Part shown: positions 1 through 34,005 of the stretch, one piece after another
How positions within the stretch are numbered: position 1 is the first letter of the stretch
Layout of the letters: each line of letters opens with the position of its first letter
From: a virus
Lineage: Duplodnaviria > Heunggongvirae > Uroviricota > Caudoviricetes
Strand: one strand, 5' to 3'
IMG/VR virus record: IMGVR_UViG_2541047957_000002
Length of the DNA stretch: 34,939 nt
Position numbers and translations under genes: made by a program
Notes under the pieces: generated by a model
Told to the model about the DNA's origin: nothing
The model's input: only the letters and a program-made list of their open reading frames with translations
Database searches by the model: none

Positions 1-1032
1 TCAAAAACTTGCTATTGATGTTGGTAGTGTTGCCAGCGGATTAAACCGTAATGCAGTTTCCAGGTGATCCGGTGCCAGATGTGCGTAACGCATAGTCATT
101 TTTATGTCGTGATGTCCGAGGATTTTTTGCAAAGCAAGGATATTTCCACCCGACATCATAAAATGCGCCGCAAACGTATGGCGCAGAACGTGTGTCAGTT
201 GACCGCGAGGGAGCACGATAGACGTTTTTTCCATCACGGATAAAAATTGAAAATAGCAGTCTGTGAAGAAATTGAACCCATCAAGCGCCATGATCTCTTC
301 GTAAAGCTCTTTACTGATAGGGATGCTTCTGTTTTTCTTCCCCTTCGTTCTTACAAAGGTAATTCGGTATTTGGTCACCTGTGAACGAGTAAGATTTACG
401 GCTTCTCGCCAGCGTGCGCCTGTGCTTAAGCATATCTTAACTACCAGTGCTAGAATTGGGTCCTGACGTTTGCAATCAGCCAGTAATTCAACAATCTGCT
501 CATGGGTAAGCCATGCCATCTCTTTTTCTGCGATGGTGAATTTTCGCATGTTCTCCAGTGGGTTCGGATACGACCATTCGCCCAGACGGGATAGTTCGCT
601 AAAAACACTACTTAGATAGCTTTGCTCCAGGTTAATGGTGACCGGGCTTGCTCCTTTCTTCCATTTCTCGCTGAAGTAGATCTCGCCTGTCAGGCGTTTA
701 TCTCGATAGTGGGCAAACATTTTAGAGGTGAGATCGGTTGCAAGAGGATTGCCCAGAGCGTCAACCATCAGCAGCAATTTGTCATAGACATGCTGCCCAG
801 CAGTCAGAGATTTACCATGTAGTTTGAACCATAGCTCAACCACGTCTTTCAGGGTTCGACGATCCACTGATTCGCCCAGCCATGGCTTTGATTCGGTTTC
901 TTCCATAGTGTGACGCTCAAAAGCCAGAGCTTCGCCTTTGGTGGCGAATTGTTTACGCACACGACGCCCACTTCGTCCGGCGGGGTAACATTCGCAAAGC
1001 CATTTCCCTGTGGTGAGTTTTCGTACTGCCAT
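1..1032 (-). CDS. int: Tyrosine integrase (P2 Int family)
   Basis: Six-frame ORF 1..1188; C-terminal catalytic region HVLRHTFAAHF...MTMRYAHL (H-x-x-R ... Y). Start placed at the internal Met (MAVRKLTTGKWLCE...), which matches the P2-family Int N-terminus and has a GGAGGG RBS 8 nt upstream; the ORF could begin earlier at 1188. Confidence 0.88.
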   Translation of the reverse strand: MAVRKLTTGKWLCECYPAGRSGRRVRKQFATKGEALAFERHTMEETESKPWLGESVDRRTLKDVVELWFKLHGKSLTAGQHVYDKLLLMVDALGNPLATDLTSKMFAHYRDKRLTGEIYFSEKWKKGASPVTINLEQSYLSSVFSELSRLGEWSYPNPLENMRKFTIAEKEMAWLTHEQIVELLADCKRQDPILALVVKICLSTGARWREAVNLTRSQVTKYRITFVRTKGKKNRSIPISKELYEEIMALDGFNFFTDCYFQFLSVMEKTSIVLPRGQLTHVLRHTFAAHFMMSGGNILALQKILGHHDIKMTMRYAHLAPDHLETALRFNPLATLPTSIASF

Positions 1033-1063
1033 AAAAAATGCCCTCCAGTAGAGAGCATTTTTA

Positions 1064-1079
1064 CTGTATGTATAACCAG
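1064..1079. promoter_or_regulatory. LexA-box-like palindrome CTGT-N8-CCAG upstream of int (tentative)
   Basis: Sequence TACTGTATGTATAACCAGTG; same CTGT-N8-CCAG form as the uvrB SOS box. The second half-site is imperfect. Confidence 0.25.
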
Positions 1080-1220
1080 TGTCAATGTATGAAATCCTAC
1101 GACCATACATCTCACTGAAGCCATAATGAAGTTGGCTATTCTTTTTGCTATGTGAGCATGTAACTTTTGCGGTTAACCTGCGGCTCATTTTTATTTTAGA
1201 CGCAGATATAAAAGCAAAAG

Positions 1221-1412
1221 TTATCGTGAGTTTTTAGTACAGATTTTTTTGGATTTACTAATAGTTCCATCATTGCAAACGAATTTGCCATCTGAGGTAC
1301 AGTGAGAAACACCTCCCTTTTTCCCTGAGCAGGGATAATTTCTAGCATAGGTAGTTAGTGGGTTTAATAACAAAGAACATGACAAAACCACAAAAAATAC
1401 CTTACCAAGCAT
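1221..1412 (-). CDS. Small secreted 4-Cys basic peptide, hypothetical (candidate lysogeny-expressed moron)
   Basis: 63-aa ORF with N-terminal hydrophobic signal-like segment [23 protein letters not shown] and mature part with 4 Cys and many Lys. Strong RBS GGGAGGAAACT before the ATG; sits 15 bp downstream of the cI stop on the same strand; locally AT-rich. Confidence 0.5.
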
Positions 1413-1427
1413 AGTTTCCTCCCGGTA

Positions 1428-2003
1428 CTATTTAACATACTTGACTGTTAAACTTATAATTTTACCAATTATTTCAATGTCTTCTATCTTACATTCGAAG
1501 GCTCTGTTTCCACCCTCGACGAAGATTCTTCCACCGGGTAAACGAGTAATGTCACGGATCGTTACTTTGCCATCAATACTTATTACCCATTTACCATCAC
1601 GTATATCATCAAATTCTTTATCACAAATAAATTCAGAATTGTTATCTGTGATGACAAAAGGTTTTTTAAACGTAGAGGGTAGAAATCCCTTATCAAAAAT
1701 ATAAAAACCGTCTTCACGCAAGGCACCATCAGATAATACATATTTAGCAACTTCCATAGTATTTGTATTACCTGAAGTTTGCTTTGAACCATGTCCGGTT
1801 GTGAGCCAATTAAGCGAGGTGCCCGTTTCAAGGGCGCACTGGATTACCCATTCTGCTGGGAATGAGTCACGCATGTAGCGTGTGGCGAGTGTACTTTTAG
1901 AGATTCCTAAATGATCGCACAACGCCTGTCGAGTTTTGAATCCATAAGCTTCTACCATGCGCTCTATAGCGCCTCGTCCGCCTTTCTCCAAATTCATGGT
2001 CAC
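1428..2003 (-). CDS. cI: Immunity repressor, phage 186 CI-like (191 aa)
   Basis: Size and position diverging from apl; N-terminal HTH-like segment RQALCDHLGISKSTLATRYMR; 186 CI is about 192 aa. Confidence 0.8.
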   Translation of the reverse strand: MTMNLEKGGRGAIERMVEAYGFKTRQALCDHLGISKSTLATRYMRDSFPAEWVIQCALETGTSLNWLTTGHGSKQTSGNTNTMEVAKYVLSDGALREDGFYIFDKGFLPSTFKKPFVITDNNSEFICDKEFDDIRDGKWVISIDGKVTIRDITRLPGGRIFVEGGNRAFECKIEDIEIIGKIISLTVKYVK

Positions 2004-2122
2004 TCCAAGTGAACTTTTATCTTGACGATTTCATTGTGCGATCGTATGTTTATGGTGTTCACAAAATACAAACGATCCGTATTCGTCCTGATTAATCATC
2101 ATTAAACGAGGAATGTTGCATC
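2004..2122. promoter_or_regulatory. Lysis/lysogeny switch region (candidate pR TTGACG-17-TATGTT at 2022-2050; TTGTG/CACAA inverted repeat 2035-2065 as possible operator)
   Basis: Intergenic region between divergently oriented cI and apl; -35/-10-like hexamers with 17-bp spacing; short inverted repeat overlapping the promoter. Confidence 0.4.
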
Positions 2123-2344
2123 ATGAGACCTAACATTTCAATCACTCTTACCACGCCTCATGTGACTATTGAGCGCTATAGCGAGCTGACAGGGCTGTCC
2201 ATCGATACCATCAATGACATGTTGGCTGACGGACGCCTTATCCGTCACCGTTTGCGCAAAGATAAAAAACGCGAAAAAGTGATGATCAACATAGCAGCCA
2301 TGACCGTTGATGCGCTTTCAGAATGCAATCTAAACCTTAATTAG
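2123..2344 (+). CDS. apl: Apl/Cox-like excisionase and lytic-switch regulator
   Basis: 73-aa ORF directly opposite cI and upstream of cII, with HTH-like segment [21 protein letters not shown]; called by position and size. Confidence 0.55.
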
Positions 2345-2376
2345 TTCGATTCTGAAATACATCAGAGGCATTGACC

Positions 2377-2886
2377 ATGTTTGATTACCAAGTTTCCAAA
2401 CATCCACATTTTGATGAAGCCTGTCGTGCATTTGCACTGCGCCACAATCTGGTGCAACTGGCAGAACGTGCAGGCATGAATGTGCAGATTCTGCGGAACA
2501 AGCTGAACCCAGCTCAGCCTCATCTATTAACCGCACCAGAAATCTGGCTGCTTACCGATCTGACTGAAGATTCAACGCTGGTAGATGGTTTTCTGGCACA
2601 GATTCATTGTCTGCCATGTGTACCGATTAATGAGGTGGCAAAAGAGAAACTGCCACATTACGTCATGAGTGCAACCGCAGAGATCGGGCGTGTTGCTGCA
2701 GGTGCGGTATCTGGCGATGTAAAAACCAGTGCAGGTCGTCGTGATGCTATCAGCAGCATTAACTCTGTAACACGACTGATGGCGTTGGCTGCTGTTTCAT
2801 TGCAGGCCCGTTTACAGGCTAACCCTGCGATGGCGAGTGCAGTTGATACCGTGACTGGCCTCGGTGCTTCATTCGGTTTGCTGTGA
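2377..2886 (+). CDS. cII: CII lysogeny-establishment activator (phage 186 CII-like, 169 aa)
   Basis: Translation [24 protein letters not shown]...[25 protein letters not shown]... closely matches 186 CII as I recall it, and the 169-aa length agrees. The ORF track starts at TTG 2371; ATG 2377 is preferred. Confidence 0.85.
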
Positions 2887-2893
2887 GGTGCTT

Positions 2894-3094
2894 ATGCTGA
2901 CGAAAGAACCATCATTTGCATCGCTGCTGGTAAAACAAAGCCCGGCAATGCACTACGGTCACGGCTGGATAATGGGTAAGGATGGTAAACGCTGGCATCC
3001 GTGCCGTTCACAAGATGAATTGCTGGCAGAACTATCAACGAAAAAACGGGGGAACAAATGGCTATTGAAGGCGCTGCGGCGACTGTTCCATTAA
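2894..3094 (+). CDS. Hypothetical early protein (in the position of 186 fil)
   Basis: ORF right after cII; start ambiguous (GTG 2864 or ATG 2894); no recognisable motif. Confidence 0.35.
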   Translation: MLTKEPSFASLLVKQSPAMHYGHGWIMGKDGKRWHPCRSQDELLAELSTKKRGNKWLLKALRRLFH

Positions 3095-3927: not shown

Positions 3928-4781
3928 GCACCATCCTGAAATGGGCGGGAAATAAAACTGCCATTATGTCCGAACTGAAAAAACACCTTCCTGCTGGCCC
4001 GCGACTGGTTGAACCTTTCGCGGGTTCCTGTGCTGTGATGATGGAGACGGATTACCCCAGCTATCTTGTTGCGGATATTAATCCTGATTTAATCAACCTC
4101 TATAAAAAGGTTGCTGCTGATTGTGAGGCGTTTATATCTCGTGCCAGAGCTTTATTTGAGGAAGCAAACAGGGAGGTGGCTTATTACAACATAAGGCAGG
4201 AGTTTAATTACTCCACTGAAATTACTGATTTCATGAAAGCGATATATTTTCTGTATCTCAATCGTCATGGTTACCGTGGGTTATGTCGCTATAACAAGAG
4301 CGGGTATTTCAACATTCCCTACGGTAATTATAAAAATCCGTATTTCCCTGAAAAAGAAATTCGCGCATTTGCAGAGAAAGCCCAGCGGGCAACGTTTATC
4401 TGCGCCAGCTTTGATGAAACGCTGGCGATGTTGAAGGCGGGGGATGTGGTGTATTGCGATCCGCCGTATGACGGTACGTTTTCCGGCTATCACACTGATG
4501 GTTTCACTGAAGATGACCAGTATCACCTGGCATCCGTTCTTGAACATCGGTCATCAGAAGGACATCCGGTCATTGTTTCTAACAGTGACACATCCCTGAT
4601 CCGTTCGCTGTATCGCAATTTTACTCACCACTACATCAAGGCAAAACGCAGCATCGGCGTAGCAGCTGGTGAGAGTAAATCTGCAACAGAAATCATCGCT
4701 GTTTCTGGGGCGCGCTGCTGGGTGGGATTTGATCCTTCGCGTGGCGTGGATAGTTCTGCCGTGTATGGAGTGCGTGCATGA
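3924..4781 (+). CDS. dam: DNA adenine methyltransferase (Dam family)
   Basis: Motif I-like PFAGSCAV and catalytic DPPY ([10 protein letters not shown]). ATG at 3924 overlaps the upstream stop (ATGA), and its stop overlaps the A start. Confidence 0.85.
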
Positions 4782-7192
4782 GCCATGCTGATATGAACAA
4801 CTGCAGCGGCTTTAACGAGGCCGCCGCAGCATTCTCATGGAACAGCCCGAAAAAGGCTATTAACCCTTATCTGGACCCGGCGGAAGTTGCGCCGGTTTCT
4901 GCGCTTTCAAACCTGATCACTCTGTACGCTGCCGATAACGAGCAGGAACAACTGCGCCGCGAGGCACTGAGTGATCAGGTCTGGGAGCGTTATTTCTTTA
5001 ATGCATCCCGTGATCCTGTCCAGCGCGAAATGGAGCAGGATAAGCTCATTAGCCGGGCAAAGCTGGCGCATGAGCAGCAGCGTTTTAATCCGGACATGGT
5101 CATACTGGCGGACGTTAACGCCCAGCCTTCCCATATCAGCAAGCCGCTGATGCAACGTATTGAATACTTCAGCAGCCTGGGCAGGCCAAAGGCTTATTCC
5201 CGCTATTTGCGTGAGACGATTAAGCCATGTCTGGAACGACTGGAGCATGTACGCGACAGTCAGCTATCCACTTCTTTTCGCTTTATGGCAAGCCATGAAG
5301 GGCTGGACGGCCTGCTGATCTTGCCTGAAATGAGTCAGGATCAGGTGAAACGCCTGTCTACTCTTGTCGCTGCGCATATGAGTATGTGTCTTGATGCCGC
5401 TTGTGGTGATTTGTATGCCACCGATGATGTTAAGCCAGAAGAAATCCGCAAGACATGGGAAAAGGTGGCAGCAGAAACCCTGCGACTGGATGTCATACCG
5501 CCTGCGTTTGAGCAACTCCGCCGGAAAAGAAACCGCCGTAAACCCGTACCCTATGAACTCATTCCGGGTTCGCTGGCGCGTATGTTGTGCGCCGACTGGT
5601 GGTATCGGAAATTGTGGAAGATGCGTTGTGAATGGCGGGAAGAGCAGTTGCGTGCTGTTTGCCTGGTCAGCAAAAAAGCATCTCCCTATGTCAGCTATGA
5701 AGCCGTGATGCATAAACGTGAGCAGCGCCGTAAGTCGCTGGAGTTTTTCCGTTCTCATGAACTGGTGAACGAAGACGGCGACACGCTGGACATGGAGGAT
5801 GTGGTAAACGCCAGCAGCAGCAACCCTGCGCATCGCCGCAATGAGATGATGGCCTGTGTTAAAGGTCTGGAGCTTATCGCGGAAATGCGCGGTGACTGCG
5901 CCGTTTTCTACACCATCACCTGTCCGTCACGTTTCCATTCCACGCTAAATAACGGCAGGCCCAACCCGACCTGGACAAATGCGACGGTAAGACAAAGCAG
6001 TGATTATCTGGTCGGCATGTTTGCTGCATTTCGTAAGGCGATGCACAAAGCCGGATTGCGCTGGTATGGCGTGCGGGTGGCTGAGCCGCATCATGACGGC
6101 ACAGTTCACTGGCACCTGTTGTGTTTCATGCGCAAAAAAGACCGCCGCGCCATTACTGCATTGTTGCGTAAGTTTGCTATCCGTGAAGACCGCGAGGAGC
6201 TGGGTAATAACACGGGGCCACGCTTTAAGTCTGAGCTGATAAACCCGTGCAAAGGAACGCCGACTAGCTACATCGCGAAATACATCAGTAAGAACATTGA
6301 CGGGCGTGGTCTGGCTGGCGAGATCAGCAAGGAAACGGGTAAATCTCTGCGTGATAACGCTGAATACGTTAATGCCTGGGCGTCTCTGCATCGTGTTCAG
6401 CAATTCCGCTTCTTTGGCATTCCGGGGCGTCAGGCTTACCGTGAACTGCGATTGCTGGCTGGTCAGGCGGCAAGGCAACAGGGTGACAAAAAAGCAGGTG
6501 CGCCGGTACTGGATAACCCGCGCCTTGATGCCATTCTGGCTGCAGCTGATGCTGGTTGTTTTGCCACCTACATCATGAAGCAGGGCGGCGTACTGGTTCC
6601 CCGTAAATATCACCTCATCAGAACCGCTTATGAAATCAACGAAGAGCCGACCGCCTATGGCGATCACGGCATTCGTATTTATGGCATCTGGTCACCCATT
6701 GCAGAGGGTAAGATCTGCACTCATGCAGTGAAGTGGAAAATGGTTCGTAAGGCCGTTGACGTTCAGGAGGCGGCAGCCGACCAGGGCGCTTGCGCCCCTT
6801 GGACTCGTGGCAATAACTGTCCCCTTGCTGAAAATTTGAACCAACAAGGGAAAGACAAATCAGCTTATGGGGATACCAGAACGGACATTACCCGCATGGA
6901 TGACAAGGAGTTGCACGATTACCTGCACAGTATGAGCAAAAAAGAGCGCCGGGAACTGGCTGCAAGGTTACGCCTGGTGAAACCGAAACGGCGTAAAGAC
7001 TACAAACAGCGAATTACAGACCATCAGCGACAGCAGCTCGTCTATGAGCTGAAGTCCAGAGGATTTGATGGCAGCGAGAAAGAGGTCGGTTTACTCCTTC
7101 GTGGCGGCAGTATTCCGTCAGGAGCAGGCCTGCGTATCTTCTATCGGAACCAGCGTTTGCAGGAAGATGATAAGTGGCGGGATCTGTATTAA
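4778..7192 (+). CDS. A: Rolling-circle replication initiator (P2 gpA family)
   Basis: 804 aa; HUH-type motif [10 protein letters not shown] and tyrosine pair YIAKYISK; position at the end of the early operon. Confidence 0.9.
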
Positions 7193-7344: not shown

Positions 7345-7533
7345 ATGCAGGACTATTTTTTGGAGTCTTTGAAGCTCCAGCGCATTGATTTTTTTCTTAA
7401 GCTTGTAGCGGCTAGTGAGTGTAGTGATGAAGAGAAGGGGCTGGCCCTGCAGTGGGTTTCTGAACTAACAGATGAACTCATGGCAAAAATCAGAACCCAC
7501 GAATACAACCGCTCAATGGATGTCATCAGCTGA
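7345..7533 (+). CDS. Small SOS-operon protein, candidate Tum-like antirepressor
   Basis: 62-aa ORF with AGGAGG RBS immediately downstream of the LexA box; function inferred from position only. Confidence 0.4.
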   Translation: MQDYFLESLKLQRIDFFLKLVAASECSDEEKGLALQWVSELTDELMAKIRTHEYNRSMDVIS

Positions 7534-7543
7534 GGTGACTTTT

Positions 7544-7777
7544 ATGCGCATTGAAATAATGATCGATAAAGAGCAGAAGATTAGCCAGTCTACCCTGGAC
7601 GCTCTGGAGTCCGAGCTTTACCGCAACCTGCGCCCCCTGTATCCCAAAACGGTAATTCGTATCCGCAAAGGTAGCTCTAACGGTGTGGAACTTACCGGAC
7701 TGCAACTGGACGAAGAAAGAAAACAAGTGATGAAAATTATGCAGAAAGTGTGGGAAGACGACAGCTGGCTGCATTAA
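7544..7777 (+). CDS. DinI-family protein
   Basis: MRIEIMIDKEQKISQSTLDALESELYRNL...KIMQKVWEDDSWL resembles E. coli DinI (MRIEV...ETWESADDWF); GAGGTG RBS; second gene behind the LexA box. Confidence 0.75.
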   Translation: MRIEIMIDKEQKISQSTLDALESELYRNLRPLYPKTVIRIRKGSSNGVELTGLQLDEERKQVMKIMQKVWEDDSWLH

Positions 7778-8101: not shown

Positions 8102-9775
8102 ATGGAAAAATATCAAGATGAGGAATATGTAGATGATTTAACTGAGCGTGTTTTTCTCATTAAGCAACAACTGGAAGCGGGAAAACTAAAAATAGCTCAT
8201 CATCTTGTAGAAGGTTTTATTGAAAGTTTTAAAAGAATAAGGCTGCGACAGGATGGTAAAGTTGACCCTTCTACTGTTGATGGCAGAATAAGGGCTATGG
8301 GAGCAGCGGTTAATCACTTTTTAGAAAGAGAAGATATAAAAAACAAATACTCTATTCAGGACTTGCAAAGTTCTTACTTTAATATTCTTTTTAGTAATTT
8401 TGGCGAGTTGTTTTATCTGATGAAAAAAACTAATGCAACGCCACATAAAGCATCAAGTTTTTTTTCTCAACAAGAAGAATATGTTAAGCAAATAGAAGAT
8501 ATTTTTCCTGAGTTATATAATCAGGTAATAGAGTTTTGGCAGGTAACATCCGATATTGGTGTAATACATTTGCAGGATGGTTCTCAGTTTAAAGCTAATT
8601 TTTCTGGTGACTTATTTCCTGCATTTGATGAGAATGCTGTCTCTATTGCAGGGTTGTATGTTGATACTATTTCACTTCCATGTCCTATATTAAGAGTCGG
8701 TCGTCTCTATGAAAAGTCAGATAAGGCTGAGTTTACAAGGATACTTCTGAAGCATGTCCTAACATGTATGACATATAAAGAAGTAGCGCTTGAAGATATA
8801 GAGCCAGCAATAGTATTAATTTTGCCGGATAGAAGAGATTTTGAAACTGAGAGCAAAAAAAATTTGATGAGTTTTTGTGAGCCTTATGCTCTGACTCATG
8901 CGCAATATCTCTATGATCGACGGTTCGAAAGCTACGATGAACTTCGAGATTTTAGTTATTCGATGAATGATATTGATGCTGTTCTTAAAAATATTAAGAG
9001 AGCAGATAGACTTATTTTTGATACAGCATGGGGGCTAAATCCAAAAACTCAATTAGAAAAACTACTATCTGATAAAAAAAGAATATCACGTAATGTTGTT
9101 GGTGATCATGCTGGAATGGAGGTTTTCCTTTCCTGCATTGGAAGAATGCCGCAAGCCTATTCAGCAAAATGTAATGCACAAGAACTTGGTAGTACTCCAT
9201 ATATAAATGCAGACACATCTTGGCTCTATTATACTTGGCTTATTGAGTACGAATCTCTTAATTTTGATGTCAATGATATTGAACTAAAAAATTTGCATAT
9301 GGTTCATGCGTTATCTGCTGGTATGCAAGATGGTTTTTCATGGTTAGGAAATGTACCGGTCAATAAAATAATTGAGTTGAGACGTAACAAATTGATGGAG
9401 GATGTAAGATCCATCTTATCAAATGGTGTTGACTCTTTAATCAATTCTTCGGCAGAGAGCTTTTCGAGGACAACGCAAAAAGTAATTGATAATGTAGACC
9501 GGGCTTTTATTGAACATCAAAGGATTCTTGCAAAAGCCCAAAAAGAGAAATTGAGAATTTACGGACTAGATGTCCTACCATGTATCGCAAATGGTGCTAT
9601 AGCAATTGCTGGAGCGCTGACTGGCAATACTACTTTAACGGCGTTAAGTGCAGGCCTTGGAGTAATAGGTATTCCGAGTATTAGTGATATCAAATCTAAA
9701 TTTAAGCAGAGGCAAGAGAAGCTTGATGCCTATCAACGTTCTGTTACAGGTATACTCTTTAGCCATAAATCTTAA
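8102..9775 (+). CDS. AT-rich orphan protein (557 aa), unknown function; candidate anti-phage/abortive-infection cargo with C-terminal hydrophobic Gly/Ala-rich segment
   Basis: Long uninterrupted ORF in a markedly AT-rich block (first 60 nt are 30% GC by count; flanking phage genes look far more GC-rich by eye) with RBS GGAG and its own downstream hairpin. C-terminal segment LDVLPCIANGAIAIAGALTGNTTLTALSAGLGVIGIPSI (about 9565-9685) looks like a membrane or glycine-zipper element. No Walker A or other motif recognised. Confidence 0.75.
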   Translation: MEKYQDEEYVDDLTERVFLIKQQLEAGKLKIAHHLVEGFIESFKRIRLRQDGKVDPSTVDGRIRAMGAAVNHFLEREDIKNKYSIQDLQSSYFNILFSNFGELFYLMKKTNATPHKASSFFSQQEEYVKQIEDIFPELYNQVIEFWQVTSDIGVIHLQDGSQFKANFSGDLFPAFDENAVSIAGLYVDTISLPCPILRVGRLYEKSDKAEFTRILLKHVLTCMTYKEVALEDIEPAIVLILPDRRDFETESKKNLMSFCEPYALTHAQYLYDRRFESYDELRDFSYSMNDIDAVLKNIKRADRLIFDTAWGLNPKTQLEKLLSDKKRISRNVVGDHAGMEVFLSCIGRMPQAYSAKCNAQELGSTPYINADTSWLYYTWLIEYESLNFDVNDIELKNLHMVHALSAGMQDGFSWLGNVPVNKIIELRRNKLMEDVRSILSNGVDSLINSSAESFSRTTQKVIDNVDRAFIEHQRILAKAQKEKLRIYGLDVLPCIANGAIAIAGALTGNTTLTALSAGLGVIGIPSISDIKSKFKQRQEKLDAYQRSVTGILFSHKS

Positions 9776-9781
9776 TGTAGA

Positions 9782-9809
9782 GGGCCGAGGTATTCGGCCC
9801 TTAGTTTTA
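9782..9809 (+). terminator. Rho-independent terminator of the AT-rich cargo gene
   Basis: Hairpin GGGCCGA-ggtat-TCGGCCC followed by TTAGTTTTA; overlaps the stop codon of Q on the other strand. Confidence 0.55.
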
Positions 9810-10835
9810 TATGAAACTGTATGGCATGAATTTTATTATGTCATCTTTGAGCCATTTATTGAGTTCTTCTATTCTGTTTTGTAGCGGTATCAATTCATTA
9901 CGCATAAAAACCTTACTAGCCTTCTCCACATCCCCAAATCCCCCAACATTATTCGGCATTATCCCCATCATTTGCGGCGGCACTCGGTGTGCTGCCATCA
10001 TGTCATCCCGGCTCACGTTCTTGATATTCAAAAATTCATCCTTTGCCGCGACTTCTGACAGAGGAATAATCTGAAGCCCGTCTTTTTTGCCGTTAGGCGA
10101 GTACATAAACAGGTTGCGGAAGTTGCCTGGACCTTTGGCGCTTTTCATCGCGTTACGGAGATTGTTTACATCTTCCTGGTTCTGCGCGGCGTCGGTCATG
10201 TACATGATGAAGCCTGCATGGCTGCCGTTGATGTAATACTTACGGCGGAACAGCGTGGCGGACTCGTTGAGCAGGGCTGACGGAATGGCAGAAAGATAAC
10301 CGGGCAGGCCGTAGATCTCCTGGTTGATATCTGGTTCCATCAGATGAAAAATGCTGCCTTTCGTGAACTGATACGGTTGCGTGGTCATACCGTATTGCAC
10401 AAACCAGTAGGTATCCAGGTCTAACCCGCGTCGGGTATATTTTGCCAGGGCAGGCTCAAGAGCGATAATTTCACCGAACCGGTTCGTGCGTTTCTCCAGA
10501 TAGGCGTTACCAAATACCAGATAGTCCTGCACAAAACGTGAAAAAGCCTGCTGGCTGAGCAGCGGGTGAGGGATGTAGGTGCTGGTCAGAATGTTGCACT
10601 TTACTGCAATCGGGGAACTATGATGAACGGCAGCGCGGAAGGTGCGCGCCAGTCCGTCAAAGCTGACGGGCGGCTCATACCAGCGGTCCATCTGTACGCA
10701 TTCCACATAATCCAGCAGTTCTCGGCGGTCCAGAACAGGAACGGGATCGCCGAAGCTGAATGCTTCGGCTGTAGTTTGACTTTTAAGCTGGATCTGTTTC
10801 GTCGCCGCAGCGCGGTTCTTCTTACTCTTTCCCAT
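9807..10835 (-). CDS. Q: Portal protein (P2 gpQ)
   Basis: 342-aa ORF in the conserved position and orientation next to terminase P (track begins at TTG 10838; ATG at 10835). Confidence 0.88.
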   Translation of the reverse strand: MGKSKKNRAAATKQIQLKSQTTAEAFSFGDPVPVLDRRELLDYVECVQMDRWYEPPVSFDGLARTFRAAVHHSSPIAVKCNILTSTYIPHPLLSQQAFSRFVQDYLVFGNAYLEKRTNRFGEIIALEPALAKYTRRGLDLDTYWFVQYGMTTQPYQFTKGSIFHLMEPDINQEIYGLPGYLSAIPSALLNESATLFRRKYYINGSHAGFIMYMTDAAQNQEDVNNLRNAMKSAKGPGNFRNLFMYSPNGKKDGLQIIPLSEVAAKDEFLNIKNVSRDDMMAAHRVPPQMMGIMPNNVGGFGDVEKASKVFMRNELIPLQNRIEELNKWLKDDIIKFMPYSFI

Positions 10836-12601
10836 CAAAAAAACTCCACAATATTGCTGGTATTGGCGGATTCGCCCTGCAGCGGTTCGTTAAACAGTGC
10901 GTGCATCGTTGCCCAGGCCAGATCGGCGTGGCTGGCTTCTTCGCTGCGGCTGGCTTCATAGGTCGGGCGGTTGCCACTGGCGGTGGTGGCGCGACGGATT
11001 GCCATAAAGGACTGCGCTATGTCGGTGTGTCCGGCGTCAAACTCCAGACGGCGGTGGCTGATAATGTCGTAGGCCTTGAGTACCAGGGCGTTTTTAACGT
11101 TGGGGTTGTAGACAAACTCCCGGACGGCAGGAAAAAACGCTTTCACGTTCTCGTAAACCCCGTGACCAACGCCGGTTGAGTCGATACCGATATAGGTCAC
11201 GTTGTACTGTTCGGTCAGTTTTTTGATGGCGTCAGCCTGGGCGCGGAAGTCCATTCCGCGCCACTGGTGACGCTCAAGAATGCGGAACTTACCGCCCGGC
11301 ACGGCTGGCGGCGCCACCACCACGCATCCGGCGCTGTCGCCGTTCTGCGTACCTTTCGCCGGGTCATATCCGATCCACACTTCGCGCCAGCCAAACGGGC
11401 GCAGGGCCAGTGCATGAAAGTCGGTCCAGACTTCCCAACTGTCCACCATGCACGCCTGCAGCTCGCTGAGTGGGAACACAGACGCGAGATCGTCCACGAA
11501 CTCACACATCAGCAGGTTCTGGTATTCGTCCGGGCTGTACTCCATGCGCAACTGGTCGAGGTCGAACAGGTTACAGCCGCCGCGCACCGCATCTTCCACA
11601 GTGACTATCTGGCGGTACTGCCCGTCTGCGCACAGCAGGCCGGGGGCCAGATTGCTGTGGGACAGGTCGATGTCCACCTTATCGGCTTTGTTGCGCCCTC
11701 GGTTGAACAGCGCACCGGACCAGAACGGATAAGCACTGTGTGTCAGGCTGGATGGCGTGGAAAAATAGGTTTGTCGCCATTTTTTGTGAATAGCCATACC
11801 GGAAGCCACTTTGCGCAGCTCCTGGAATTTCGGTATCCAGAAATATTCATCCAGATACAGGTTGCCGTGGTAACTCTGGGCCGTGCGGGCATTGGTGCCG
11901 AGGAAGTACAGCGTGGCCCCGTTAGGAAGCACCATCGGATCGCCTTTCAGCTCCACCTCCACTTCTTTGGCGAAGTCGATGATGTACTGCTTAAAGACGT
12001 GGGCCTGAGCCTTGCTGGCGGAAAGGAAAATCTGGTTACGCCCGGTTAGCAGGGCGTCAATCAGGGCTTCACGGGCAAAATAGAAGGTCGCGCCGATCTG
12101 GCGTGACTTCAGCAGGTTGCGGATGCGGTTGGTTTTTCCGGCTTCCCACCAGTGGCGCTGGTAGTTGAACATGGAGGAATGGAAGATTTCTTCCAGCTTC
12201 TCAATCTGTTCATCGGTGAAAACGTTCTTTTCCGGCTGACGGCGCGGGCCTTTGTTGCGGTTGGCGACGTTAGGGTTTAAGTCGGCTTCGTTGCCGCCAT
12301 TGTTAAACTTGCCGATCCGCGCATGGCGCTCCGACTGGCGCGCCAGCAGGTCAATCTCTTTGAAATCTTTCCCTTCTTTGTGCTCCTTCATAATGAGCTG
12401 GCAGTAGCGTGCGGCGGTGGTGAGCTGCATCTGATCCAGCGGCCCATAGTCACCCCACTTGTCGCGTTTTTTCCAGCTGTGAACGGTTGCAACTTTCTCG
12501 CCCAGCATTTCAGCAATGCGGGCTACGCGGTATCCCTGAAAGTACAGCAGCATGGCCTGCCGACGGGGATCGAGATCTGCGGGTGTCAGTGTGGTGTTCA
12601 T
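10835..12601 (-). CDS. P: Terminase large (ATPase) subunit (P2 gpP)
   Basis: 588 aa, divergent from capsid gene O, co-oriented with Q; P2-family terminase arrangement. Confidence 0.9.
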   Translation of the reverse strand: MNTTLTPADLDPRRQAMLLYFQGYRVARIAEMLGEKVATVHSWKKRDKWGDYGPLDQMQLTTAARYCQLIMKEHKEGKDFKEIDLLARQSERHARIGKFNNGGNEADLNPNVANRNKGPRRQPEKNVFTDEQIEKLEEIFHSSMFNYQRHWWEAGKTNRIRNLLKSRQIGATFYFAREALIDALLTGRNQIFLSASKAQAHVFKQYIIDFAKEVEVELKGDPMVLPNGATLYFLGTNARTAQSYHGNLYLDEYFWIPKFQELRKVASGMAIHKKWRQTYFSTPSSLTHSAYPFWSGALFNRGRNKADKVDIDLSHSNLAPGLLCADGQYRQIVTVEDAVRGGCNLFDLDQLRMEYSPDEYQNLLMCEFVDDLASVFPLSELQACMVDSWEVWTDFHALALRPFGWREVWIGYDPAKGTQNGDSAGCVVVAPPAVPGGKFRILERHQWRGMDFRAQADAIKKLTEQYNVTYIGIDSTGVGHGVYENVKAFFPAVREFVYNPNVKNALVLKAYDIISHRRLEFDAGHTDIAQSFMAIRRATTASGNRPTYEASRSEEASHADLAWATMHALFNEPLQGESANTSNIVEFF

Positions 12602-31775: not shown

Positions 31776-31865
31776 TTCTTCGCAATGGAGAACTTTTAAG
31801 TTTGCAAAATGGAATAATAAGGTATCATTATTGTGAATTTAGCAAAAATGGGGAGAACTCGAAAA

Positions 31866-32084
31866 ATGATGATTTGCCCACTGTGTGGAAGTGCCGCCCA
31901 TACTCGCAGCAGTTTTCAGGTATCTTCATTGACCAAAGAGCGTTACAACCAGTGCCAGAACATTAACTGCAGCCATACTTTTGTTACCCATGAAACTTTT
32001 GTTCGTTCGATTGCAACGCCAAAAGAGTCAAATCCGGTTCAGCCGCATCCAATGAAATCAGGACAGGTGGCGCTCTCTCTTTGA
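31866..32084 (+). CDS. ogr: Late gene transcriptional activator Ogr (zinc finger)
   Basis: MMICPLCGSAAHTRSS...KERYNQCQNINCSHTF... matches the P2 Ogr C2C2 zinc finger (MFHCPLCQHAAH...KERYHQCQNVNCSATF); ATG 31866 chosen. Confidence 0.85.
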   Translation: MMICPLCGSAAHTRSSFQVSSLTKERYNQCQNINCSHTFVTHETFVRSIATPKESNPVQPHPMKSGQVALSL

Positions 32085-32319: not shown

Positions 32320-34005
32320 TTATCCTAATCCTGGCCATACCATGACGATGATTGTCCCTGCCAGCGTCAGCAGGACGTTGGCGATTGCGTAGGTGCCCGC
32401 ATAGCCCAGCGCAGGGATGTTACTGCGAGCTGTATCACTGATGATCTCCATTGCCGGCGCGCAGGTGCGTGCGCCCATCATTGCGCCGAACAACAGTGCG
32501 CGGTTCATTCGCAATACATAAGCACCGAACAAGAAACAGATAACCACGGGCACAAGACTGACAATTAATCCGGCAATCAACATCTGACCGCCAATCGCGC
32601 CCAGGCCGTTATTAATACCGCTACCGGCGCTCAGACCAACGCCTGCCATAAACACCATCAAGCCGAACTCTTTCACCATGCTTAATGCACCTTGCGGAAT
32701 GTAACCGAAGGTCGGGTGGTTAGCACGCATAAAGCCCAGCATAATTCCGGCGAATAACAACCCGGCAGCGTTCCCCATGCCGAAACTGAATGTGCTGAAC
32801 TGGAAGGTGATCATCCCGATCATCAGCCCAATAACAAAGAAGGCGCAAAATGCCAGCAGGTCAGTGACCTGGCTGTGAATCGAGATAAAGCCGATGCGAT
32901 CGGCGATGGTTTTTACGCGACGGGCATCACCGCTGACTTGTAAAACGTCACCTTTGTTAAGCACGACGTTGTCATCTATCGGCATCTCAATCTGGCTACG
33001 AATGACGCGGTTAAGGAAGCAACCGTGATCGGTCAACTTCAGTTGTGCGAGACGTTTACCTACAGCGTTATGGTTTTTAACGACCACTTCTTCAGTGACG
33101 ATACGCATGTCGAGAAGGTCACGATCGAAAACTTCTTTACCGTTACGGAAGCTGGGATCGAGTCGGGCATGGGCGTCGGGATAGCCTACCAACGCTATTT
33201 CATCGCCCATTTGTAGCACGGCATCACCGTCTGGATTTGCCAGAATCCCGTTACGTCGAATACGTTCAATGTAGCAGCCGGTTTGTCGATAAATACCCAG
33301 TTCACGCAGATTTTTGCCGTCGGTCCAGGCCACCAGCTCCGGGCCGACGCGATAGGCGCGGATCACCGGTAAATAAACCTTACGGTTGGCATCAGTGTCC
33401 AGGCCACGTTCGCGGGCGATTTGCTGGGCGCTGGTCTGTAAGTCCTGATGCTGCAATTTCGGCAAGTAACGCGCACCAACAATCAAACTCACCAGACCGA
33501 TTAAATAGGTTAAGGCATACCCGAGGCTCAGATTATCCAGTGCCAGTGAGAGCTGCCTGCTTTCCATGCCGGAATGACGCAGTGTATCGCCAGCACCGAC
33601 CAGAACCGGTGTCGACGTCATAGAGCCTGCTAACATACCGGCCGTCAGGCCAATATCCCAGCCAAACAGCTTACCTAACCCTAAGGCGATCACCAGCGCA
33701 CTGCCAACCATCACCAGTGCTAACATTAGGTAATTTTTCCCATCGCGAAAAAAAATGGAAAAAAAGTTCGGTCCGGCTTCGACCCCGACGCAGAAAATAA
33801 ACAGCATAAAGCCAAGATTAAGCGCATCGGTGTTAATGCTGAAATGTTGTTGGCCTAATAACAGCGATACGACTAAAACGCCAATGGAATTACCCAGTTG
33901 GATCGAACCAAGTCGTAACTTTCCGAGACATAGCCCAAGCGCGAGGACCACAAATAATAACAGAATGTAATTCCCATTTAACAATTCGGCGACGTTTATA
34001 TTCAC
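32320..34005 (-). CDS. ybjL: Putative transporter YbjL (AAE family), host gene
   Basis: 561-aa translation [29 protein letters not shown]... recognised as E. coli YbjL; multiple TM segments. Confidence 0.9.

Follow-up and report, generated by a model that had tools for sequence, protein, structure and literature searches.

A YdcA-family accessory gene between the repressor and integrase genes of a 186-type Escherichia coli prophage, with a possible role in excluding incoming DNA

We analyzed a small gene located between the repressor and integrase genes of a prophage carried on a 34,939-nucleotide stretch of DNA (IMG/VR record IMGVR_UViG_2541047957_000002, Caudoviricetes), hereafter called the window. 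The prophage is of the 186-type, P2-like kind and, according to the RefSeq annotation, is integrated beside rcdA (rcdA/ybjJ) in E. coli. On the minus strand lie the P2/186-type tyrosine integrase gene int (1-1032, with its ATG at 1032; Pfam Int_N, E = 3.1e-32, and Phage_integrase, E = 6.9e-22), an ATG-initiated open reading frame (ORF) of 63 codons plus stop (1221-1412), and the 186-type CI repressor gene (1428-1997 from the RefSeq start at 1997, with an alternative GTG at 2003; Pfam Phage_CI_repr, E = 2.8e-33, and Phage_CI_C, E = 3.7e-29). The cI stop codon, TAG, occupies 1430-1428 and is separated from the start of the small ORF by 15 nt. This gap contains the Shine-Dalgarno (SD) sequence GGGAGG at 1423-1418 (minus strand), which a spacer of 5 nt separates from the ATG (1412-1410). 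The encoded cysteines are spaced C-x9-C-x7-C-x11-C, and the GC content of the ORF is 35.4%, compared with 39.8% for cI, 47.1% for int, and 51.7% for the window. A preliminary description, made from the sequence alone, had reported the 63-aa ORF, its strong ribosome-binding site, the 15-bp gap behind cI, its position upstream of int in the same orientation, the four-Cys spacing, and the AT-rich local sequence. All of these were borne out, and the coordinates are those of a RefSeq annotation as "YdcA family protein."

We are confident that the ORF is a genuine YdcA-family gene carried as prophage accessory cargo. Its product scored 115.8 bits against the NCBIfam profile NF007463 (PRK10040.1-2; cut-off 93), covering model positions 1-58 of 58, and matched phrog_6000 in PHROGs (E = 1.9e-34). 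PF27300 was not included in the Pfam set that we scanned and is assigned through near-identical homologues of the window protein, on which it is precomputed. An identical protein exists in RefSeq (WP_000900883.1), with exactly the same coordinates in other E. coli genomes, where the flanking genes are named "phage repressor protein CI" and "phage integrase." Given this RefSeq entry and its dedicated NCBIfam and PHROG models, the sequence is already catalogued. The preliminary description did not recognize this family, which includes a core chromosomal E. coli member and is not phage-specific. A few other candidate matches were rejected. A GULLO2-like Pfam match (E = 0.075) was sub-threshold and was dismissed as noise, and the NCBIfam model lpg1681_fam, whose cut-off is 95 bits, gave only E = 0.11 (its namesake Lpg1681 has two transmembrane segments and is linked to DsbD2). 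A resemblance to DUF3761 (CxDGTxSxS...CSxHGGV) was unsupported, as hmmscan gave no match at E <= 1. The 379-aa, LtrA-domain protein P0079, in the 90% cluster of P0052, was a clustering artefact.

Of 5426 complete E. coli genomes, 648 (~12%) contain DNA of the ydcA-like gene, which falls into two allele groups. The window and ACN002 alleles differ at 12 nucleotides, of which 11 are synonymous and one is non-synonymous (R24K, conservative), giving a dN/dS of ~0.02. Within the mature part, the two E. coli alleles differ by nine synonymous and zero non-synonymous changes. Judging from these substitutions, the ORF is under strong purifying selection.

The first 23 codons (1344-1412, minus strand) are predicted to encode a signal peptide whose hydrophobic core reaches 2.7 in a 9-residue Kyte-Doolittle window, with a signal peptidase I (SPase I) cut after A23 (TYA). 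In an alignment of 23 sequences, the N-terminal 20-25 residues are hydrophobic with no conservation of sequence, Ala23 at position -1 is invariant, and the conserved mature domain begins with an invariant Pro-Cys 3-5 residues past the cleavage site. Across a larger set of 192 family proteins, Ala occupies the corresponding -1 position in 72%, with the remainder mostly offset by one residue, and position -3 is A, T, S, or V in most. Because Ala at -1 is invariant while the hydrophobic region varies across the family, processing by SPase I is the expected outcome, and we predict that the precursor is an SPase I substrate that releases a 40-aa periplasmic peptide. The mature domain, R24-R63 (1224-1343, minus strand), was delimited by the family alignment and its four invariant cysteines; it is Lys-rich and has a net charge of ~+7. 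The Cys spacing is 9/6/11 or 9/7/11 in 181 of the 192 proteins (9/7/11 in the window), and P27, S29, K32, G33, G34, F44, D48, G49, S52, S54, and K55 are also invariant. Export and disulfide formation would be in keeping with these features. Family comparison thus supports the signal-peptide-like N-terminus with an SPase I site after TYA that had been proposed for this ORF, and the mature part, put at roughly 40 Lys-rich residues, would be exactly 40 residues long after a cut at A23.

In the phage 186 annotation, pL, cI, int, orf69, and a terminator form one operon in which cI abuts int. The window follows this order, with ~395 bp of additional DNA between cI and int. Since no terminator-like site was found on the minus strand between cI and the ydcA-like ORF, co-transcription with cI is the simplest expectation, and the gene would be expressed in lysogens from the lysogenic promoter. 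The preliminary description had placed the ORF in a single cI-int transcription unit. The cI side of this proposal remains the natural reading, whereas co-transcription with int is doubtful, owing to a hairpin and U-run (1034-1062, minus strand) that pairs with the int SD sequence GGAGGG (1046-1041) and stops directly ahead of the int ATG. This hairpin likely serves as an attenuator or terminator that insulates int from the transcript of cI and its cargo, and int may therefore be largely uncoupled here, unlike in the contiguous cI-int arrangement of phage 186.

The 190 nt that separate the ORF from int are highly structured, with an RNA folding z score of -6.1 for positions 1020-1230. An alignment of sibling prophages divides them into two parts: the int-proximal ~95 nt are conserved regardless of cargo, and the distal ~100 nt (1125-1223) accompany the ydcA-like gene. 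In phage 813R9, the int-leader hairpin is preserved by compensatory changes (window 1034-1085 versus L166 5755-5856 and L169 1050-1150). The same alignment conserves a promoter-like TTGACA-17-AAAAAT in the int leader (1057-1085, minus strand), which is a consensus match only. Directly after the ydcA-like stop, a long imperfect hairpin (1161-1223, minus strand) is cargo-specific, as it is found only in prophages with the ydcA-like gene alone in the slot and is absent in siblings with other cargo beside int. Rfam identified no RNA family in positions 1-3000 of the window. On the opposite strand, a near-consensus sigma-70-like sequence (TTAACA-17-TATAAT, 11/12; 1432-1460, plus strand) lies antisense in the 3'-terminal part of cI, toward which it is directed; it may be a chance occurrence in AT-rich DNA.

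The ydcA-like gene is almost certainly an accessory "moron" gene, being variable among relatives and deviant in GC content. In phage 186 and ESSI2_ev129, the cI-int slot is empty. Phage vB_EcoM-813R9, at the same rcdA site, carries a 558-aa protein there that matches PD-Lambda-1 (E = 3e-120; L166 4085-5761), and E. coli FDAARGOS_1251 has a ydcA-like gene followed by a KAP NTPase corresponding to PADLOC PDC-S20 (E = 2e-171; L169 1142-2669). Klebsiella phage 4LV2017 has a 349-aa ORF of no assigned function in this position. The preliminary description had suggested looking for conservation in related prophages, and this was found, including at the cI-int position. Yersinia prophages keep the order cI-ydcA-int, with CI ~40%, Int ~48%, and the small protein 62-70% identical to those of the window. 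In Haemophilus phage HP2, a 60-aa YdcA-family ORF lies at ~2486-2668 on the complement strand of the reference genome (NC_003315.1; L001 2920-3102) and is unannotated in the record; S2 has it too. The ATG of the HP2 homologue overlaps the cI stop (TAATG), and it is followed by orf1(S), whose secreted product has an OB-fold domain of the tRNA_anti-like kind (PF12869, E = 2.8e-13), and then by int. In Moraxella and Acinetobacter phages, the ydcA-like gene is found among the late genes instead.

This pattern suggests that the cI-int slot behaves as a small defense hotspot expressed from the lysogenic promoter. A 2026 survey placed 8% of P2-like prophage defense systems between integrase and primase (PMC13586616). 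Sibling phages carry validated anti-phage systems in the slot, which fits an accessory or exclusion role for the ydcA-like gene, and its position there leads us to expect continuous expression alongside the repressor. The occupants of the slot differ in kind, however: PD-Lambda-1 and the PDC-S20 KAP NTPase are large cytoplasmic NTPase or nuclease-type proteins, whereas the window gene would yield a 40-aa periplasmic peptide.

The wider family comprises 229 confirmed loci in GTDB species genomes of alpha-, beta-, and gamma-proteobacteria, and it is carried by 505 IMG/VR contigs and 57 plasmid records; clusters at 50% identity number 449 representatives. The closest chromosomal point of reference is YdcA of E. 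coli K-12 (b1419; PRK10040, NF007462-NF007464; PF27300), which is 57% identical overall to the window protein. Both consist of a signal peptide and a small domain (~35 aa in YdcA) with the common motif PCSG.KGG[VI]SHC...GKFVCNDG[ST]IS.SKK.C. YdcA is encoded by a core chromosomal gene beside cybB, whereas the window gene is phage cargo with its own equivalog model. The Bacillus (rhomboid), gonococcal-island, and F-like-plasmid genes called ydcA we take to be unrelated, sharing the systematic name only. Among plasmids, the 3916-bp MOBQ plasmid pApiMCR53a of Acinetobacter pittii, which has five annotated genes, carries a YdcA-family gene at 728-904, directly after "TraD." We set aside the label "conjugal transfer protein" that UniRef gives to the cluster of the E. 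coli prophage protein, which was probably propagated from small MOB plasmids such as this one and is no guide to function.

Among solved structures, the only credible relative of the YdcA domain appears to be Dis2 (Lpg0823) of Legionella, each lobe of which the domain seems to resemble. Dis2 was the top match in the PDB (phmmer, E = 2.2e-4; family profile, E = 1.7e-4). It was also the top Foldseek match (probability 0.75, 35-37% identity). The AlphaFold2 model of the whole precursor has an overall predicted local distance difference test score of 74, and block means reach 88-91 for residues 31-50. Both Dis2 lobes contain the motif GG[VI]...G..V.CN[DN]G.[IY]S..C, the motifs C.K.GG[IV]..C and G..V.CN[DN]G..S..C are shared with the window protein, and one Dis2 homologue carries PF27300. 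The statistical support for the likeness is modest. Dis2 is a two-lobed, five-disulfide peripheral subunit belonging to the type IV secretion system (T4SS) Dot/Icm and located beneath the outer membrane in contact with DotK, DotC, and DotD; it is dispensable and has been described as lacking homologues outside Legionellales (PMC8486379, PMC12716638). Like Dis2, which is periplasmic, disulfide-bonded, and near the outer membrane, the window protein is predicted to be periplasmic. Dis2 carries its lobes in tandem within a 13-fold T4SS cap, whereas the window protein has a single four-Cys lobe that stands alone, and no T4SS genes were found in the window, as a P2-like prophage.

The domain fusions of the family provide a second line of evidence. 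Besides single and tandem copies, the YdcA domain is found directly after the signal peptide and N-terminal to an SNase domain (E = 4.8e-24), to Endonuclease_NS in several proteins (E = 7e-35, 8e-33, and 6e-24), and to a PLD-type domain (E = 5e-19), as well as, weakly, to an HNH motif. The nuclease fusions to the first three of these superfamilies are those of L052 (1723-2655), P0115, P0162, P0189, and P0194. Other proteins fuse the domain to Lys-rich repeat tails, one has a VasL domain, and in beta- and alpha-proteobacterial members an additional Cys domain corresponds to the PBCV basic adaptor domain (PF08789). The only enzymes seen as fusion partners are nucleases, drawn from three superfamilies that are unrelated to one another, which hints that the shared ligand is nucleic acid, or at least that the shared feature is the compartment where DNA is met.

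As a whole, we find these data best explained by a binding module in the periplasm that contributes to the lysogen's exclusion of incoming DNA, a reading to which we assign a rough probability of 0.35. The protein would be made in lysogens from the repressor transcript, with its own strong SD sequence 15 nt after the cI stop. Its precursor would be exported by Sec and cut by SPase I after TYA, releasing the 40-residue Lys-rich domain into the periplasm, where the four invariant cysteines would form two disulfides. There, the YdcA domain would act as a small autonomous module that binds a polyanion, most plausibly DNA crossing the envelope. By binding this DNA, or the outer-membrane-proximal machinery through which it passes, the peptide would let the lysogen exclude superinfecting phage genomes and perhaps also DNA arriving by conjugation or transformation. 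Ligand and phenotype are both what we infer, and the mechanistic part, exclusion through polyanion or DNA binding, is tentative. Elsewhere, the entry of DNA is controlled by small proteins of the envelope or periplasm, such as TrbK of RP4 and ComEA of competent bacteria. The YdcA domain likewise occurs on phages, mobilisable plasmids, and secreted nucleases; no homology between TrbK or ComEA and the window protein was detected.

Several observations weigh against an exclusion module of this kind. Neither activity, binding of DNA or exclusion of phages, is backed by an experiment on any family member, and the former is suggested for the YdcA domain by its fusions only. The nuclease fusions make up a small minority of the family and could equally mean envelope anchoring. 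Family members differ in the net charge of the domain (median +4, range -2 to +8), so polycation behavior is not universal. In its solved structure, Dis2 contacts proteins rather than DNA, and it is dispensable. The family also includes core chromosomal members such as E. coli ydcA beside cybB, a gene that the literature connects only with acid/YdcI regulation and 3-hydroxypropionate sensitivity. In PADLOC-DB 2.0, the window protein matched no family at E <= 0.01. Finally, Pfam scans of the nearest upstream ORFs at 75 loci and the nearest downstream ORFs at 73 revealed no conserved partner gene (4 CI, 5 integrase, 3 cytochrome b561, and 6 DUF2946 neighbors), which implies that the protein works alone.

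A rival explanation is that the peptide docks in the envelope. Much as the Dis2 lobes bind the lipoproteins DotC and DotD and the OmpA-like DotK, it might bind an outer-membrane-proximal host protein or lipid head groups and thereby alter a phage receptor, an injection route, or a secretion or conjugation channel, so that exclusion would come about through protein-protein contact and not DNA binding. We regard this as somewhat unlikely. The sole structural relative, Dis2, is itself a protein-binding peripheral subunit near the outer membrane, the defense and cargo slot of the lysogenic operon is a fitting place for such a gene, and the nuclease fusions can be read as envelope anchoring. However, neither E. 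coli nor the window has Dot/Icm, no conserved neighbor indicates a binding partner, and a generic ligand is favored by the spread of the domain over alpha-, beta-, and gamma-proteobacteria, whose envelopes are very dissimilar. The basic tails and basic adaptor fusions also suit a polyanion better.

The resemblance to chromosomal YdcA raises another alternative, in which the gene is a host-physiology conversion gene that serves envelope stress or acid and organic-acid tolerance and raises lysogen fitness with no anti-phage role. Deletion of ydcA made E. coli W sensitive to 3-hydroxypropionate, an effect overridden by yieP deletion, and ydcA has been described as acid-induced under YdcI control (PMC7642389). 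Together with the 57% identity and the many family members in ordinary chromosomal contexts, this gives the proposal some substance. Nevertheless, the published phenotype is indirect, and the family is heavily enriched on prophages, small plasmids, and viral contigs. The sharing of the slot with defense genes is better explained by a role in conflict between mobile elements, and we consider a purely physiological function unlikely.

A secreted antimicrobial or protease-inhibitor-like knottin, in the manner of a defensin, bacteriocin, or Pin-II inhibitor, could also be a 40-aa, four-Cys peptide with a net charge near +7, and the PDB search did return weak matches to Pin-II type protease inhibitors (E = 0.07-0.8). 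With the family profile, though, the Pin-II match stays weak (E = 0.22) while Dis2 holds 1.7e-4, and we treat it as chance similarity among Cys-rich sequences. No immunity, export, or maturation genes lie nearby, and a Sec signal alone would leave the peptide in the periplasm of its producer, making this option very improbable.

Resident phages can protect against superinfection through small receptor-blocking envelope lipoproteins such as Cor (phi80, N15, and HK022) and Llp (T5). The preliminary description had drawn this analogy from the prospect of a small envelope protein made by a resident phage, and it had noted a lipobox-like VLSC. The motif is indeed present, at residues 9-12, in a gene of the lysogenic operon, and an outer-membrane lipoprotein cut there might block FhuA-type receptors. 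Lipoprotein processing itself did not hold up. The VLSC is restricted to the closest relatives, anything lipobox-like precedes the domain in only 4 of the 192 family proteins, and the Ala of the SPase I site is invariant in the 23-sequence alignment. A Cor/Llp-type lipoprotein is unlikely because the VLSC is not conserved and Cys12 is too near the N-terminus, leaving an 11-residue signal peptide. Sequence similarity to Cor or Llp, or to any known exclusion family, was likewise absent from PHROGs, where only phrog_6000 was significant, and from PADLOC, which gave no match. Taken together, these results leave the lipoprotein with hardly any probability.

That the region is an untranslated spacer or part of the int leader with a chance ORF, as a short, AT-rich reading frame in structured, intergenic-looking DNA might suggest, is ruled out for practical purposes by the 11:1 ratio of synonymous to non-synonymous changes (dN/dS ~0.02), family hidden Markov model scores above curated cut-offs, hundreds of homologues in unrelated contexts, and the finding that the real int leader is the separate conserved ~95 nt beside int.

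A small secreted moron behind the repressor would not in itself surprise a phage biologist. The gene is nonetheless very common, with a prophage copy in about one of every eight complete genomes of E. coli. In the literature that we searched, its connections with Dis2 and with secreted nucleases are not discussed. We found no paper that joins ydcA with both periplasmic and disulfide terms, nothing on the YdcA family in the literature on periplasmic DNA binding and superinfection exclusion, and no expression or phenotype data on a ydcA-like prophage gene. These links lead to two hypotheses, periplasmic DNA binding and outer-membrane-proximal docking, which would be cheap to test with the 40-residue peptide. 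If either is true, a new small exclusion factor would be named, and an annotation would follow for YdcA, for an orphan subunit of a T4SS, and for several hundred ORFs of phages and plasmids, including the unannotated gene in the HP2 reference genome.

A broader generalization is speculative. The YdcA domain and the Dis2 lobe might represent a widespread, previously unrecognized periplasmic mini-domain that binds DNA or other polyanions, which secreted nucleases would use to bind their substrate and which, standing alone, would form a new class of exclusion factor that catches incoming DNA in the periplasm. With the same reserve, the mobile elements using it might include 186/P2-like and HP2 prophages, Moraxella and Acinetobacter siphophages, and small mobilisable plasmids. 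A DNA-binding mini-domain would, if true, provide the first functional handle on Dis2 of Dot/Icm and on E. coli YdcA.

Elsewhere in the window, a 557-aa ORF (8102-9775, plus strand) occupies a known P2 hotspot, flanked by the replication gene (4778-7192) and the portal gene (9807-10838). Pfam gave no match for it and PADLOC only a weak one, to DitB (E = 3.4e-9), making it a candidate uncharacterized defense gene. Positions 7472-7777 hold a DinI-like gene. At its right end, the window runs into host DNA, with an Asp-Al_Ex/TrkA_C transporter gene, probably ybjL, at 32320-34005 (minus strand). The prophage is located between rcdA and this transporter gene, and since an ogr-like prophage gene occupies 31833-32084 (plus strand), attR should lie between about 32085 and 32320.

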